64,000 nucleotides of DNA, from NCBI RefSeq assembly GCF_039541115.1, contig NZ_BAABFP010000002.1, forward strand, positions 930,001-994,000, written 5' to 3'. Under the pieces are notes generated by a model that was given only the letters and a program-made list of their open reading frames with translations, was not told the DNA's origin and searched no databases. This DNA comes from Angustibacter luteus (GTDB taxonomy: Bacteria > Actinomycetota > Actinomycetes > Actinomycetales > Angustibacteraceae). The position numbers and the translations under genes were made by a program. Positions 10,336 to 15,358 of this stretch are shown piece by piece; positions within the stretch are counted from its first letter, which is position 1; each line of letters starts with the position of its first letter.

Positions 10336-10527
10336 GTCCTCCGCAATCCGTTGTGTCGTGGGCCGCCCGCACGCGGACGAACCCCCAGGTGGTGGTGCTG
10401 CAGCGCACGCGTGACAGCGTCCTCATGCCGCCAGAACCAGCCGCGGGACGGGGCGAGGACGAGGGTGCTCGTGAGCCGACACAGCAGAATACGCCAGATC
10501 GTGCTCAGACCCCAAATGCGACCGTGC

Positions 10528-11925
10528 TCAGACGGTCAGCACGCCCCCCTCGAAGGCTTGCTGCGTCCCGCCGCCGTCCACCGCGGTCGCCGGTCCCACG
10601 GGGTATCCCCACCGGCCCGTCTCCGCGCCGTCCTGCTTCCAGCGGGTGAAGACCGCGCCGGTCACGGACTGCGTGGTCGTGCTCGTGGTGTCCGCGATCA
10701 CGCCGCGCTCGAAGTACTGGATCCACCGGTCGCTGCTGACCACGCGGTCCTTGACCGGGAACCCCAGGGCGCTCTTCTCGCCGCCCAGCGCCTTCCAGAC
10801 CGTGTAGGAGGTGCCGCTGAGGTAGGCGGTCACCGAGCTGGTCGTGTCCGCGATCACGCCGTGCTCGAAGTACTGGATCCACCGGTCGCTGCTGACGACG
10901 CGGTTCGTGATCGGGTAGCCGAGCACCCCGGAGTAGCCGCCCAGCTGGCGCCAGCGGCCGTACGCGACGCCGAGCACCAGGGCGGTCGCCGAGCTGGCGG
11001 TGTCGGCGATCCCGCCCTTGTCGAAGTACTGGACCCACTTGCCGGACGTCACCACCTTGTCGCCGCGCGGGTAGCCCAGGCTCCCCCGCTCGCGGCCCTG
11101 GGCGACCCACACGGTGTAGGCGTAGCCGAAGACCGCGTGCGCCCCGTTCTCGGGCCGCCAGCTGATCGCTCCGTGCTGGTAGTTCACGTACTTGCCGATG
11201 CCGTCGCCGACCGCGCGGTCAGGTCCGGTGGACGCGCCCAGGGGCGAACCCAGCGACCCGAGCGCGTCGTACTTGCGCGAGATCGGGCTGCACCCCTGCA
11301 GGCACGGCGCGTTGTGCTCCGCCGTCGCGTTGTCGCTGAGCGAGGTCGTGGTGCAGTTCGCCCACTTGTACGGCGCCACGCAGCTCACCACCCGGCAGGC
11401 CACCCCGCCACTGCACTTCACGTGCGTGTTGCACTGCCCGTAGCGGAAGGCGTTGCAGCACACCCGACGCTGGTCGCAGGTGGACTTGGAGCCGCACTTG
11501 CAGCTGCAGCTCCAGCAGCCGGAGCTGCAGATGTTGTCGTCCGAGCAGCCCGACGTGCACTTCGAGCAGCTCGCGTTGCAGTCGGTGATGTAGCGGTAGC
11601 CGCCGCAGCACCACGACGAGTCGGCAGCCTTCCACCAGCCGGCCGCGAACGTGCCGGGCGGGCAGGCGTTGACGCCCTTGTTGATCGTGCAGCACATCAC
11701 CGTGTAACCCGCCGCGCACGACGCGGCCGGGCCGCACCCCACGGCGGCGGAGGCGGTCATCGGGGTGAGCACGTAGTTGCGTGGGTCGACGACGATCGCC
11801 GACCCGACCACCGCCGTCCGCACGAGGAAGCCGCGGCGGCTGAACCGGCCCAGCCGGTTCGAGACCCGCTCGACCAGTCGCATCGTGGGGCTGCTGGCGG
11901 TCGTCGCCTCCTGCAGGGTGGTCAC
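10528..11925 (-). CDS. Tat-exported Cys-rich protein (MauA/amine dehydrogenase light-chain-like) fused to LGFP repeats
   Basis: SRRGFL Tat motif (aa 29-34), ASA cleavage site; 26 Cys in aa 64-212; NACPPGT..GWW and YITDC motifs; about 5 LG[YF]P repeats; AGGAG SD and GTGA overlap. Confidence 0.8.
   Translation of the reverse strand: MTTLQEATTASSPTMRLVERVSNRLGRFSRRGFLVRTAVVGSAIVVDPRNYVLTPMTASAAVGCGPAASCAAGYTVMCCTINKGVNACPPGTFAAGWWKAADSSWCCGGYRYITDCNASCSKCTSGCSDDNICSSGCWSCSCKCGSKSTCDQRRVCCNAFRYGQCNTHVKCSGGVACRVVSCVAPYKWANCTTTSLSDNATAEHNAPCLQGCSPISRKYDALGSLGSPLGASTGPDRAVGDGIGKYVNYQHGAISWRPENGAHAVFGYAYTVWVAQGRERGSLGYPRGDKVVTSGKWVQYFDKGGIADTASSATALVLGVAYGRWRQLGGYSGVLGYPITNRVVSSDRWIQYFEHGVIADTTSSVTAYLSGTSYTVWKALGGEKSALGFPVKDRVVSSDRWIQYFERGVIADTTSTTTQSVTGAVFTRWKQDGAETGRWGYPVGPATAVDGGGTQQAFEGGVLTV
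10688..10904. repeat. Intragenic direct repeat (two LGFP units, 156-nt period)
   Basis: 10688-10748 vs 10844-10904, 59/61 identical. Confidence 0.9.
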
Positions 11926-12401
11926 GGCAGGGCTCCTGTCCGCAGCATCTCGGTCCTGCTGGCGACCCGCACCGACCGCACCATCGCCTGCGCCCGAGGC
12001 ACGGTCGCCATCCGCCGCGAGTGCGCCCCGAGGACGACGAACAGGCAGAACGCCCGACCACCCTCGGAGAAGAAGTGCTGGGCCGCGCTGACTCCGGGGT
12101 AGGACCGGGCCAACCGGTTCGTGGCGAACTGCGACGGCCGCAGCGCCGGCCGGCCCTGCCGCGCGAACAGGCCCTGGTCGGCCACCTCGGTGCCGTAGTC
12201 GATCAGCGAGACGAAGACGTCGTCGGCGCCGAGCAGGTCGATCACCCCCGAACCGAAGTCCCCTCGGACGGCGGGCAGCGGCCGGGTGCAGGCGTGCAGC
12301 ACCGGGTGGGTGACCTCGTCGGCGCCCAGCGGCTCGCGGCGGAAGACCCGTGTCTCCCAGCCGTGCTCGGCCGGCACCGTCAACCCGTACCTGGACGCCA
12401 T
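11922..12401 (-). CDS. Hypothetical soluble protein of the mau-like operon
   Basis: ATG at 12401 after GGAG (track start 12413); stop overlaps the next start; no signal peptide. Confidence 0.8.
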   Translation of the reverse strand: MASRYGLTVPAEHGWETRVFRREPLGADEVTHPVLHACTRPLPAVRGDFGSGVIDLLGADDVFVSLIDYGTEVADQGLFARQGRPALRPSQFATNRLARSYPGVSAAQHFFSEGGRAFCLFVVLGAHSRRMATVPRAQAMVRSVRVASRTEMLRTGALP

Positions 12402-12403
12402 CG

Positions 12404-13090
12404 TCAGCTCCATCCCGAGGCGACCACGACGGTCGCGGTCAGCACCAGCGCGCCCCGCGCCAGCCGGTCCACCGGTCGGGCCCAGCGGTCGAGCCGGGCG
12501 AAGAACCGGTGCAGGTCACCGGGCGAGTGCACGCCGTGCAGCGCCAGGATCGGCAACCCGCGGGCCACCCCGAAGACCAGGCCGAGCAGGAGCCCCACCC
12601 ACAGCTGTCCCGACCACGCCGCCAGCAGCAGCACCGCGTACACCGTCGAGCTGGTGACGATCGTCATCACCCCGGCACCGAGCTGCAGACCGAAGCCCAG
12701 GCCGTAGACCCAGCCGCGGTAGCGGGTCAGCCACGCCTCGTCGACCTGGCGCTTCCAGGACGGCAGGCCGTGCCCGCGGGCCCGCAGATCCAGGGCCAGG
12801 CCGACCAGCACCCCGATCGCCACGAGCACCGCGGCGGCCACCGAGTCACGCCAGGACGCCGGCAGCGCGCTGCCCAGGGCAGCGGCCAGCGTCCCGGCGA
12901 CCGCACCGCCGACCAACGACCCGACGAGGTAGGCGGTGACGGTCAGTCCCCACCGGGCACCACGGGCCCGCTCACCGAGCGGGCTGATGCTGGACAGCAT
13001 CGACTCACCTCAAGGTGACCAGGTCGAGCGCACCGCGGCCACGAGGGCCAGCGGCAGCCCGACGACGACGGCGACGAGCTGGGGGGTCAT
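12404..13090 (-). CDS. MauF/DsbD-like membrane protein with in-frame UGA at codon 27 (candidate selenoprotein, 228 aa)
   Basis: ATG 13090 overlaps the upstream stop (ATGA); reads MTPQLVAVVVGLPLALVAAVRSTWSP*GESMLSSISPLGER, in frame with track ORF 12404-13000; multiple TM helices, RQV and GxQLGxG motifs. Confidence 0.7.
12966..13018 (-). promoter_or_regulatory. Stacked mRNA hairpins around and after the UGA; candidate bacterial SECIS or recoding signal
   Basis: UCACC-UUGA-GGUGA (13018-13005); GAUGCU-GUCC-AGCAUC (13001-12986); GCCCGCUC-GGU-GAGCGGGC (12984-12966). Confidence 0.5.
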
Positions 13091-13932
13091 GGCTGACCCG
13101 GCTCGTCGTCCGGTGGACCGGGGTTCTCGTACATGCTCTGGTGACCCGGGTGGATCCCGGCCCCCAGCAGCTCACGGTCGATCCGGGCCAGATCCGCGTA
13201 GTCCTGCAACGGGTCCAGCCCACCTGCGCCGGCCCCGGGCCCGATCGGGCCCGGTCCGGTGCGGCCCGCGCGGCGACGCGCGTCCGCGGTGTCCGCGACC
13301 GCCTGGCCCATCAGGTCGCGCACCTGGGCCCAGGTGGTCGACGAGCCCTCGCCGGTGATCAGTCCGTCCTCGACGTACACGAAGTACGGCGAGCCGGGCA
13401 CGCCGTAGTCGGTCCAGACCGCATCGGACTGGACGACCTCGAGCCGGTCCCGGGCCAGGTCGCGCAGCCGCGACACGCTCTCCTCCTGAGGACCCTTGGT
13501 CACGACGACGAGCCGGCCCTGGCCGGGGACGTCCGGCGTTCCGACGGACAGCTCGTCCCAGAAGGTCTGGCAGACCGAGCACCCGCTCGACAGGAACGCC
13601 AGCAGGGTGCGCCGCCCACCACCGGCGACGGGGATGGTCACCTCGTCGCCGTCCAGCGTCGTCCCGATCACCGCGGCCGCCCGGACGCTGGCCGGGCGGG
13701 TGGCCGGCATGATGCCGGTCTCGAGGTCGACGTCCACCGGGCCGGTGCCGGATCCGTGCTGGTGCGCGGCCTCCCCCGCCGCACCCGCCGTCGCGCCGGG
13801 CTTCTCGAGGTCGAGGCCGGCACCCAGCTCGTGCAACGCGCGCAGGATCAGCGCGTGGCTGCGGAGCAGGCCGACCACGAGCAGGGCGAGCAGCGCGATG
13901 GCCGCACCTTCGGCGACGACGACAGCGAGCAC
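13087..13932 (-). CDS. MauD-like membrane-anchored thioredoxin-fold protein
   Basis: N-terminal TM helix then LLRSHALILRALHE; AFLSSGCSVC (CxxC); YGVPGSPY cis-Pro loop. Confidence 0.85.
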   Translation of the reverse strand: MLAVVVAEGAAIALLALLVVGLLRSHALILRALHELGAGLDLEKPGATAGAAGEAAHQHGSGTGPVDVDLETGIMPATRPASVRAAAVIGTTLDGDEVTIPVAGGGRRTLLAFLSSGCSVCQTFWDELSVGTPDVPGQGRLVVVTKGPQEESVSRLRDLARDRLEVVQSDAVWTDYGVPGSPYFVYVEDGLITGEGSSTTWAQVRDLMGQAVADTADARRRAGRTGPGPIGPGAGAGGLDPLQDYADLARIDRELLGAGIHPGHQSMYENPGPPDDEPGQP

Positions 13933-13935
13933 GGA

Positions 13936-14484
13936 TCAACCTCTCTGCGGGGCGGTGGCCGAGCGCACCGCGCTCGGGGTGACGGTGGGCAGGACGGCGA
14001 TGACCAGGTAGCTCAGCCAGGTGAGCAGGACGGCGAAGCCGAGGACGGCGACGGCCAGCGCCGGGTCGTCCGTCGCGGCCGCCCACCAGGTGCCCGCGGG
14101 CGGGTCGAGCGCCACCGCGACGCCGGACGCCGCCAGCAGGCCGGTGACCACGAGATGCGCTCGGGTGGGTGGGGTGTCCGGGCGGCCGAAGCAGCCACAG
14201 GAACCGAGGACCCCGCCGCGGGACAGGGCCAGGGCGACGAAACCGGTGAACACGAGGTAGGCGACCGCGACCAGGACGGCGGTCAGCCGGCCGGGGCGCA
14301 CCAGGGCCAGGACGCCCCCGAGCACCTCCGCGGCGGCCGCGGCGCGGACCGGCGTGCGCCCGGCCGGCAGTCCGACGGAGCGGACCGCCCGGACGAGCGG
14401 CAGTGGATCACGCAGCTTGGGGAGGCCGGCCAGGACCAGCAGCACGGCGGCCGCCAGGTAGGCGCAGACGGCGATGTTCCCCAT
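13936..14484 (-). CDS. MauE/DoxX family membrane protein
   Basis: LAGLPKLRDP, AEVLGG, SCGCFG motifs; about 5 TM helices; ATG at 14484 preferred over track start 14547. Confidence 0.88.
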   Translation of the reverse strand: MGNIAVCAYLAAAVLLVLAGLPKLRDPLPLVRAVRSVGLPAGRTPVRAAAAAEVLGGVLALVRPGRLTAVLVAVAYLVFTGFVALALSRGGVLGSCGCFGRPDTPPTRAHLVVTGLLAASGVAVALDPPAGTWWAAATDDPALAVAVLGFAVLLTWLSYLVIAVLPTVTPSAVRSATAPQRG

Positions 14485-14521
14485 GCGGCTCGACGCTACA
14501 CGGTCGGTGTCGCCGCAACCG

Positions 14522-15358
14522 TTAGCCGAGGGGGGCGAATGCGGCACCGAGCTCGGCGAGCCTCTGCGCGCCGCCGTCCAACGCCGTCAGCACCCACAGG
14601 CCGTCGTCGCCGACCGCCACGGTGTGCTCGAAGTGGGCCGCCCGCGACCCGTCCAGGCTCACCACCGTCCAGTCGTCCGCCAGCACGCGGGTCTGGGCCG
14701 ACCCGCGGGTCAGCATGGGCTCGATCGCGACGACCAGCCCCGACCGGACCCGCACACCCTTGTCGCGCACGCGGTAGTTCGGCACCTGCGGGTCCTGGTG
14801 CATCTCGGTGCCGATGCCGTGGCCGACGTACTCCTCGACGATGCCGTATCCCGCGTCGGCACCCAGCACCGTGTCCTCGACGGCGGCACCGACCGCGTGC
14901 AGCCGCTCACCCACCGCCAGGGCCGCGATCCCCCGCCACATCGACTCCTCGGTCACCCGCAGCAGGTCCAGGTCCGCCGGGTCGGCCTGCGCTTCGTCGC
15001 CGACCACCACGGTGATCGCCGAGTCGCCGTGCCAGCCGTCGACGATGGCGCCGCAGTCGATGGAGACCAGGTCACCGTCGGCGAGCCGGCGCTGGCCGGG
15101 CACACCGTGCACGATCTCGTCGTTCACCGAGATGCACACCGTGCCGGAGAACGGCGGGTGCCCGTAGCCGAGGAAGCTGGGGGTCGCACCGGCCTCGCGG
15201 ATCGTGCGCTCGGCCAAGGCGTTCAGCTCGCCGGTGGTGACGCCGGCGACGGCGGACTCGCGCAGCCGCTGCAGGGTCTGCCCGACGAGCACCCCCGCCC
15301 GGCGCATGAGGCGCACCTGGTCCGGTGACTTGTACTGGATGCGGTCGCGGCCGATCAC
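14522..15358 (-). CDS. map: Type I methionine aminopeptidase
   Basis: CISVNDEIVHGVP, DCGA..DGWHGDSA, GHGIG, AIEPM, HFEHT. Confidence 0.97.
   Translation of the reverse strand: MIGRDRIQYKSPDQVRLMRRAGVLVGQTLQRLRESAVAGVTTGELNALAERTIREAGATPSFLGYGHPPFSGTVCISVNDEIVHGVPGQRRLADGDLVSIDCGAIVDGWHGDSAITVVVGDEAQADPADLDLLRVTEESMWRGIAALAVGERLHAVGAAVEDTVLGADAGYGIVEEYVGHGIGTEMHQDPQVPNYRVRDKGVRVRSGLVVAIEPMLTRGSAQTRVLADDWTVVSLDGSRAAHFEHTVAVGDDGLWVLTALDGGAQRLAELGAAFAPLG

Follow-up and report, generated by a model that had tools for sequence, protein, structure and literature searches.

The window studied here, a stretch of 64,000 nucleotides from the genome of Angustibacter luteus, contains a five-gene operon that we interpret as a modified form of the mau maturation system; it includes a candidate for a new selenoprotein family, and its client protein is not an amine dehydrogenase of the classical kind. 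It seems to us rather probable that homologues of mauE, mauD and mauF form a mau-derived thiol/selenol folding module dedicated to one client, and that this client, the product of the last gene (A), is derived from the light chain of the tryptophan tryptophylquinone (TTQ) enzymes and displayed on the cell wall. The genome (G000; 11 contigs) is 100% complete, conservation was counted across 401 family-balanced Actinomycetota genomes, and L-numbers denote loci in relatives.

The operon and its mau homologues

The five genes all lie on the minus strand, in the order mauE-mauD-mauF-H-A, between map (14522-15358) and infA in a ribosomal-protein region. The mauE homologue E (13936..14484) encodes a membrane protein of 182 aa with a CGCFG motif (C96/C98; PF07291); the mauD homologue D (13087..13932) a protein of 281 aa with an N-terminal hydrophobic segment or anchor and a thioredoxin-like domain bearing CSVC (C118/C121); the mauF homologue F (12404..13090) a membrane protein of 228 aa (PF13386), when read through an in-frame UGA; H (11922..12401) a protein of 159 aa; and A (10528..11925) a protein of 465 aa with 26 Cys in residues 64-212 and four LGFP stretches. 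E and D are separated by 3 nucleotides, D overlaps F and H overlaps A by 4 nucleotides each, and the gap between F and H is 2 nucleotides, provided that H starts at ATG 12401. The co-oriented operon proposed in a first-pass annotation of the window is confirmed, its genes, motifs and junctions being located where that annotation had placed them. A search for promoter or terminator consensus sequences at the operon found none. The operon, which starts 37 nucleotides past the map stop codon, is inserted (at 10337-14521) within the ribosomal spc-alpha region; the map/infA insertion is alike in L014 and L016, as judged by open reading frame (ORF) layout, and the Pedococcus loci differ.

Profile comparisons connect E, D and F to the Mau proteins. 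E matched PF07291 (MauE) at E 1.5e-15 with 58.1 bits, against a cut-off of 27. D matched TIGR02661 (MauD) at 1e-4 with 21.8 bits, under the cut-off of 188.6, and a D-family profile built without the Paracoccus protein matched Paracoccus denitrificans MauD at 96.8% (E 2.9e-10). F matched PF13386 (DsbD_2) at 8.5e-6 and no NCBIfam model, and the F-family profile, from which MauF was kept out, matched P. denitrificans MauF over 184 columns at 98.9% (E 4.2e-17). The window genes D and F are also the best matches in G000 of P. denitrificans MauD and MauF (E 1.3e-6 for MauF), and F is homologous to MauF over its full length, with the WSPCG motif (as WSPUG) and the RQV motif. These comparisons establish E, D and F as genuine homologues of the Mau proteins, the similarity on which the first-pass annotation had relied, and D is a MauD homologue, not an equivalog.

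An A profile matched 34 of the 401 genomes, 32 of them (G000 included) over the full domain and 2 in the leader only. Beside A in the 31 other genomes lie D (31), H (31), F (28) and a confirmed E (27); of the four genomes without a confirmed E, one cluster meets a contig end, two have candidate ORFs that were unscanned and one yielded no E, and the cluster of G234 is divided between two contigs. The gene order differs between clusters (E-D-F-H-A, E-A-D-F-H, E-A-D-H-F). With this linkage of D, H, F and E to A, the arrangement is not due to chance, and the set first recognized in the window alone is a conserved one.

A very probable selenocysteine codon in mauF

The UGA of mauF (13010..13012; residue 27, STWSPUGESM) aligns with the invariant Cys of the MauF motif STWSPCG, and the 26 codons upstream of it align with the first helix of MauF and the WSP motif. 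G000 has selA, selB and selD, all above cut-off, and its sole tRNA with a UCA anticodon is a tRNA-SeC(tca) on contig C5, adjoining selB; a selB (L018), selA (L053) or selD (L069) gene directly adjoins the operon in three relatives. MauF-type genes were matched in 87 of the 401 genomes. Where the match covers the motif, an in-frame TGA is present in 69 genomes, 64 of them with selA, and no stop is present in 13 genomes, 4 of them with selA; five genomes with partial mauF matches only were left out of this tally. The 69 include the unpublished G001, G048 and G120 (61/66 without them), and the association between TGA-mauF and selA (Fisher p 4e-6) is overstated because kin genomes are not independent. 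The codon was viewed in place at 46 TGA and 13 Cys loci (36 TGA and 3 Cys in one printed subset), and for the TGA loci beyond these 46 the count rests on an automatic stop flag. Taken together, the alignment and the genomic context suggest that the UGA is very probably decoded as selenocysteine (Sec27). Genomes with selA (267/401, six of them unpublished) far outnumber the 69 with TGA-mauF.

The consensus of a bacterial selenocysteine insertion sequence (SECIS) is a hairpin just 3' of the UGA with a G-led loop. A SECIS-like element of two hairpins lies within mauF (12966..13001; fold z -2.75), and its second hairpin (12966-12984) has 8 bp and a GGU loop that lies 33 nucleotides 3' of the UGA. 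Among the 19 rows that share one register, pairing holds for 94.7% of the cells and 2 pairs have two-sided changes, and a shifted second register of helix 2 occurs in 11/30 rows. The covariation score of the hairpin was reached by 0/500 shuffles, a result that related sequences can produce without structure, and the tested helix was drawn from the same sequences as the test; helix 1 has no covariation. The choice among synonymous codons is fixed in the way that the stems demand, namely Ser AGC in 30/30 (background 0.28), Arg CGG in 19/19 (0.31) and Leu CTC in 18/19 (0.41). The hairpin is gone in the three Cys genes that were folded, which come from lower-GC loci (-3.3 to -4.9 versus -6.9 to -16.4 kcal/mol).

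The mauF gene is the only convincing selenoprotein gene that we found in G000. A crude, non-exhaustive scan reduced 1153 coding-like in-frame TGAs to 13 with motif and hairpin, of which mauF alone looks real by eye, and the inspected neighbourhoods of selA, selB and selD held no selenoprotein candidate. The genome has no selenocysteine-containing formate dehydrogenase, its two molybdopterin genes lack an internal stop and its SelD has Cys; mauF may explain why selABCD has been retained without such a formate dehydrogenase. A itself was considered as a selenoprotein and rejected, the TGA stops flagged inside A matches falling outside the reading frame.

Selenocysteine at the one invariant Cys of MauF would mark that residue as active and would open the role of MauF to direct testing; annotation, by starting these genes at Met31, hides the residue. 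Apart from the UGA site F contains no Cys, and the MauF-family alignment has no second conserved Cys column; with Sec27 as the one redox residue, the sequence does not show a two-thiol electron shuttle of the CcdA type. The selenium part of the electron-transfer step that the first-pass annotation thought possible is supported, and its transfer part is corrected in this respect. The candidate family is absent from the 119 prokaryotic selenoprotein families in the portion of PMC13188914 available to us, and neither PMC12013277 nor PMC13326102 has the term 'mau' in its main text; the supplements of both could list MauF.

The cysteine-rich client A and the accompanying gene H

A consists of a leader for twin-arginine translocation (Tat; residues 1-60, 11746..11925) with the motif SRRGFL (RR at 11833-11838), the 26-Cys domain (residues 61-212, 11290..11745), which is a probable remote homologue of the TTQ light chains MauA/AauA, and a C-terminal region of LGFP repeats (residues 229-465, 10528..11241) that is a predicted cell-wall anchor. 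The nearest named relatives of the domain are in Angustibacter (80-92%) and Pedococcus/Phycicoccus (77-79%), and the family comprises 364 clusters and 628 representatives. In comparisons of its structural model (predicted local distance difference test, pLDDT, 93.6) with 48,161 chains, the sole match at Z >= 2 was the small subunit of aromatic amine dehydrogenase (AADH; 2agl_D, Z 2.9, root mean square deviation (rmsd) 3.2, 73 aligned). Among the Foldseek rows of A, Z 2 was reached by 5/32, all of them light chains of AADH or of methylamine dehydrogenase (MADH; MADH L, 2bbk, Z 2.8, rmsd 3.6, 82 aligned), and no Foldseek row reached E <= 0.001. These structural matches are weak but consistent. 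The end of the structural alignment places C177 of A on Cys121. The top three ESM Atlas clusters near A carry PF02975 in 14%, 13% and 98% of their members, at a score below the reliable range, and searching the PDB sequences with the A profile (hmmsearch) gave 0 matches at E 10.

Full-length A matched MauA profiles at 96.8%. This value leans on the leader, and a MauA leader profile run against G000 did not place the leader of A within its top eight matches; being leader-driven, with the leader unspecific in this control, the match is not decisive alone. The leader scored E 0.07 to TIGR01409, under the cut-off, R30/R31 are invariant in the family alignment, and the leader profile resembles that of MauA. 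A bridge is provided by the client of another Sec-MauF cluster, the second in G375 (L139:6071-6658, -), for which the match to the MauA profile was 62.8% (E 7e-5); it has GGWWESCCN aligned with ASWVASCYN, and it has YRDC. This client has no recognisable C-terminal Trp108 segment. Through it, W97 of A (11635-11637) would correspond to Trp57, W98 to Val58 and D115-C116 (D115, 11581-11583) to Asp76-Cys77. We take the identities of Asp76 and of the MADH disulfide pairs as given; these residues are invariant in the MauA alignment. W97, W98 and D115 are present in 255/255 A homologues, R111 in 254 and F160-R161-Y162, equivalent to Tyr98-Arg99-Pro100 by hhalign, in 253-254/255. Trp108 is not conserved, a Trp anywhere in residues 151-176 being found in 17/255 homologues and at no fixed place; its position would fall on the variable K170 (A/G/P/R) by Cys/Arg spacing, or on the invariant Y162 under an alternative register. 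The place of Asp32 is likewise not conserved (D in 103/255). The numbering of Trp57 and Trp108 follows the accessible text of PMC11951088. From alignments and models together, we regard A as very likely to be homologous overall to the MauA/AauA light chain.

Within the family, cysteines of A appear and disappear two by two (142/157, r 0.96; 79/208, r 0.89; 140/156, r 0.85; 70/144, r 0.83), as expected of disulfides, and the pairing differs in part from that of MauA. Ten Cys are invariant, an even number that leaves no evident spare Cys for cysteine tryptophylquinone (CTQ), and no haem motif CxxCH was found in A. The C-terminus matched PF08310 with four LGFP stretches (E 5e-29). Elsewhere in the family the tail varies: it is <=25 aa in 55/254 homologues, and in the 49 long homologues scanned it was LGFP in 19, CWB2 in 7 (4 also LGFP), SLH in 1, FG-GAP in 2, MauE in 1 and of no family in 23; B-lectin or ricin domains occur on other homologues. 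Fusions of E or H with A (P0196, P0250, P0255, P0140, P0136) were set aside as probable frameshift artefacts at the overlapping junctions.

H matched no Pfam or NCBIfam family. Its model (pLDDT 95.6) has a PsbP/Mog1/DcrB-like fold (best match Z 6.9, rmsd 3.5, 104 aligned), and Foldseek returned nothing at E <= 0.001. H aligns over 100-116 residues with Tsi3, MTC28, LpqN, PsbP, DcrB and EagT6 at Z 5.6-6.9 and 5-16% identity, a Z range common for unrelated folds, and no function is transferred from them. No signal peptide, haem motif or propeller is evident in H; lacking the latter two, it is neither MauB nor MauG. H accompanies A in 31/31 clusters and occurs in no inspected cluster of the sister client A' described below, which fits a private chaperone or partner; H may be a cytosolic chaperone or partner of A.

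The components that would complete an amine dehydrogenase were sought in the same genomes. MauB (PF06433) was found in 0/32 A-bearing genomes, the P. denitrificans control being positive at 2.4e-212, and the MauG/CcP family (PF03150) in 1/32, with none in G000. PF02975 was above cut-off in 0/401 genomes, G000 included, and the cupredoxin family PF00127 had no match in G000. In tblastn searches of G000, P. denitrificans MauB and amicyanin found no match at E 0.1, and the one match of MauG was a 60-aa piece (E 0.066). A Pfam scan of 78 flanking ORFs (103 called; three lower-GC loci yielded no ORF calls) found no conserved oxidase, haem protein or regulator, and no flavoprotein, cupredoxin or MauG is conserved in the neighbourhoods of A. 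Without Trp108 and MauG, classical TTQ cannot form, and without the heavy chain as well, A is not a TTQ amine dehydrogenase. Classical methylamine oxidation by this system is very unlikely, in agreement with the doubt expressed, and the absence of mauB and mauG noted, in the first-pass annotation.

Sister clusters with other clients

Most other mauF genes inspected, with Sec or Cys, belong to E-D-A'-F clusters without H (L085:3510-5968, L086:5429-8685, L125, L128-L136, L140 and L141). A' is a Tat protein of ~176 aa with no Pfam family, represented by 1287 clusters and with the invariant motifs HxCGH and CPHP. Its W125, D138-C139-C140, R146 and Y156-C157 are each 100% conserved in the 121 closest rows, and motif spacing equates them with Trp57, Asp76-Cys77-Cys78, Arg99 and Trp108-Cys109, which would put a Tyr in the place of Trp108; hhalign did not recover this mapping. 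On these motifs, A' is a better candidate than A for a Trp-Tyr quinone. The E/D/F set serves still other Cys-rich Tat clients, and every inspected F cluster with D adjoins one. The client at L137:4167-5501 (+) has a short W/DCC/GYC domain, VYC and a long CWB2-like tail, and that at L138:4865-5198 (+) is a Cys-rich, unrelated-looking mini-protein with a MauA-type leader.

Proposed mechanism and alternatives

We suggest that the Tat pathway would export A on its MauA-type leader, possibly escorted or held by cytosolic H. Outside the membrane, MauE (CxC) would take electrons from MauD (CxxC) to the quinone pool in the manner of DsbB, while MauD would put up to 13 disulfides into A. MauF, through Sec27, would supply the reducing or reshuffling step, in which a transient selenosulfide would serve to break incorrect disulfides in MauD or the client. 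Where there is no Sec to be had, Cys versions of MauF would fill this role. Folded A would then be displayed on the envelope by an exchangeable anchor (LGFP here; elsewhere CWB2, SLH, lectin, FG-GAP or none). According to the available part of bioRxiv 10.64898/2026.03.05.709764, MauE homologues take the place of DsbB in E. coli by means of the CXC motif. A is most likely a surface binding or redox module, with Trp97 unmodified or at most 7-hydroxylated; the hydroxylated form is plausible, the first hydroxylation being believed to proceed autocatalytically with help from an Asp, according to the accessible passages of PMC7876137. The first-pass annotation had envisaged a maturation and export system redeployed for a different, wall-associated client: the wall association stands, the client is probably a divergent protein of the MauA/AauA fold that keeps the equivalents of Trp57 and Asp76, and no gene of the operon is an export system, export being ascribed to the general Tat pathway.

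Several observations weigh against this proposal. A does not reach PF02975 or TIGR02659 above cut-off, and PF02975 is found in 0/114 family members; the mature domain matched MauA profiles at 7-17%, 1/25 column shuffles scored above the real profile, and its structural Z of 2.9 is weak when taken alone. The conservation of W97, W98, D115, R111 and F160-R161-Y162 goes beyond the needs of a passive scaffold and favours a catalytic site. Three A clusters lack F, a Cys-type mauF lying elsewhere in those genomes, and G000 has a second MauE-family gene (C8:76411-77622, +; E 2.4e-13 to the E profile). Five TGA-mauF genomes have no selA match, all of them drafts (91-99% complete), and a literature search on the function of MauF found no paper, its reshuffling role being one that we infer.

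The alternative that survives best, although we think it distinctly less probable, is that A, with no heavy chain, is a quinoprotein whose Trp-derived cofactor is non-canonical and which oxidises an amine or another surface substrate. Trp97 would be hydroxylated with the aid of Asp115 and then oxidised; a cross-link to a Tyr (Tyr162, or in A' the Tyr at the place of Trp108) might also form, MauG taking no part in these steps. The correspondence of W97 and D115-C116 to Trp57 and Asp76-Cys77 through the L139 client and the invariance of W97 and D115 speak for it, as do the fully conserved W125, D138-C139-C140 and Y156-C157 of A' and the same W/DCC/GYC/VYC pattern in the L137 client; the Asp is also strictly conserved in tryptophylquinone enzymes, according to the same part of PMC7876137. 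However, neither MauG nor a flavoprotein, haem protein or cupredoxin is conserved nearby, the place of Trp108 holds the variable K170, there is no spare Cys for CTQ, the place of Asp32 is unconserved, and the mapping of A' rests on motif spacing that hhalign did not recover. Equally tentative is the broader idea of a large, unrecognised Actinomycetota radiation of the MauA fold, matured by Sec-MauF, MauE and MauD and bearing a Trp-derived cofactor without MauG or heavy chain; if true, A', and perhaps A via Tyr162, would hold a tyrosine-cross-linked tryptophylquinone, a cofactor outside the five quinone cofactors given in the available portion of PMC11951088.

It is improbable that E and D are a general envelope oxidative-folding pathway with A as a co-located passenger. 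MauA is present in 10.2% of MauE-bearing species and MauE is called a generalist in the accessible text of bioRxiv 10.64898/2026.03.05.709764, and the module is paired with several different clients; yet reading frames overlap with that of A, A is linked in 31/31 genomes despite many rearrangements, each inspected F cluster with D adjoins a Cys-rich Tat client, and G000 has its separate MauE-family gene. More improbable still, the UGA might be a true stop, with the protein starting at Met31, or be decoded as Cys: an in-frame ATG four codons past the UGA is kept in 29/30 TGA rows, and 5/69 TGA genomes have no selA match, but those five are drafts, the 26 codons before the UGA align to MauF, 13 loci have a Cys codon at the site, the hairpin is lost in the three folded Cys genes, and the sole UCA-anticodon tRNA of G000 is tRNA-SeC. 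Finally, a normal TTQ amine dehydrogenase with mauB and mauG elsewhere in the genome, for which the mau-like leader, fold and helper genes and the BNR or PD40 propeller genes flanking some clusters (family f23, L072; a propeller could have diverged beyond recognition) might be cited, is largely refuted by the counts for MauB, the MauG family, PF02975 and Trp in residues 151-176.

Relation to known systems

The mauFBEDACJG cluster on plasmid 1 of P. denitrificans PD1222 (L087) and the aau cluster likewise combine MauE (CGCF), MauD (CxxC) and MauF (STWSPCG, RQV) with an adjoining Tat-exported Cys-rich protein of similar leader and light-chain-like fold, whose Trp57, Asp76 and Cys36/46/77/121 have equivalents in A. 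Unlike them, the present system has no MauB, MauG, amicyanin, MauJ/M/N or MauR that we could find, a UGA/Sec in MauF, the extra gene H and a monoderm host; compared with mature MauA, A has 26 rather than 12 Cys, rewired pairs, an added wall anchor and no Trp108. These features suggest that monoderms have put the TTQ light-chain fold to use again in the absence of MauB and MauG, retaining Trp57 and Asp76 and losing Trp108 or exchanging it for Tyr; the outcome would be either a defunct cofactor site that became a scaffold or a new cofactor.

The MauE proteins of bioRxiv 10.64898/2026.03.05.709764, in the part available, share the CXC(FG) motif and occur without a recognised MauA, whereas here the gene for MauE shares an operon with those for MauD, MauF and a single client; MauF, selenocysteine and Actinomycetota go unmentioned in that part of its main text. 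Some of the species described as having MauE without MauA may carry MauA homologues that have diverged too far for PF02975 to recognise. F shares a membrane superfamily with the CcdA/DsbD domain (PF02683, PF13386) and has the first P-C motif as P-U, but it lacks the second Cys. CcdA needs two membrane Cys, in two P-C motifs. The selenoprotein TsoB (rhodanese/DsbD fusion-like, NF045694) belongs to the same superfamily, and F is without its rhodanese domain and UxxxxU motif. Streptomyces candidate clusters for peptides that are made by the ribosome and modified post-translationally (RiPPs) contain mauE and mauD, but none of the other mau genes, next to precursors rich in Cys; these precursors are short, and MauF, Sec and a light-chain homologue are not named in the available passages of PMC7794033. 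Our literature search found no description of the present operon or of Sec-MauF.

Variation around the clusters

Searches of plasmids by tblastn with A and with E gave nothing useful. Stand-alone Cys-type mauF genes occur at L122, L123, L124, L126 and L127, where neither E nor D nor a client was detected at distances up to ~5 kb. Six loci (L057, L058, L060, L061, L063 and L064) have an ORF of 217-246 aa after A with no Pfam match, and at L072 a PD40 propeller gene directly follows H. In family f23 (L077-L083), a TlpA-like redoxin gene and a convergent BNR-repeat gene lie downstream of H, and the twin-arginine motif of the A leaders is degenerate. His-rich tails are found at the C-termini of mauD in L017-L021 and of mauE in L073 and L077-L083, and an ELxxxGIxPGHPSL-like motif ends D in the window and E in family f23.

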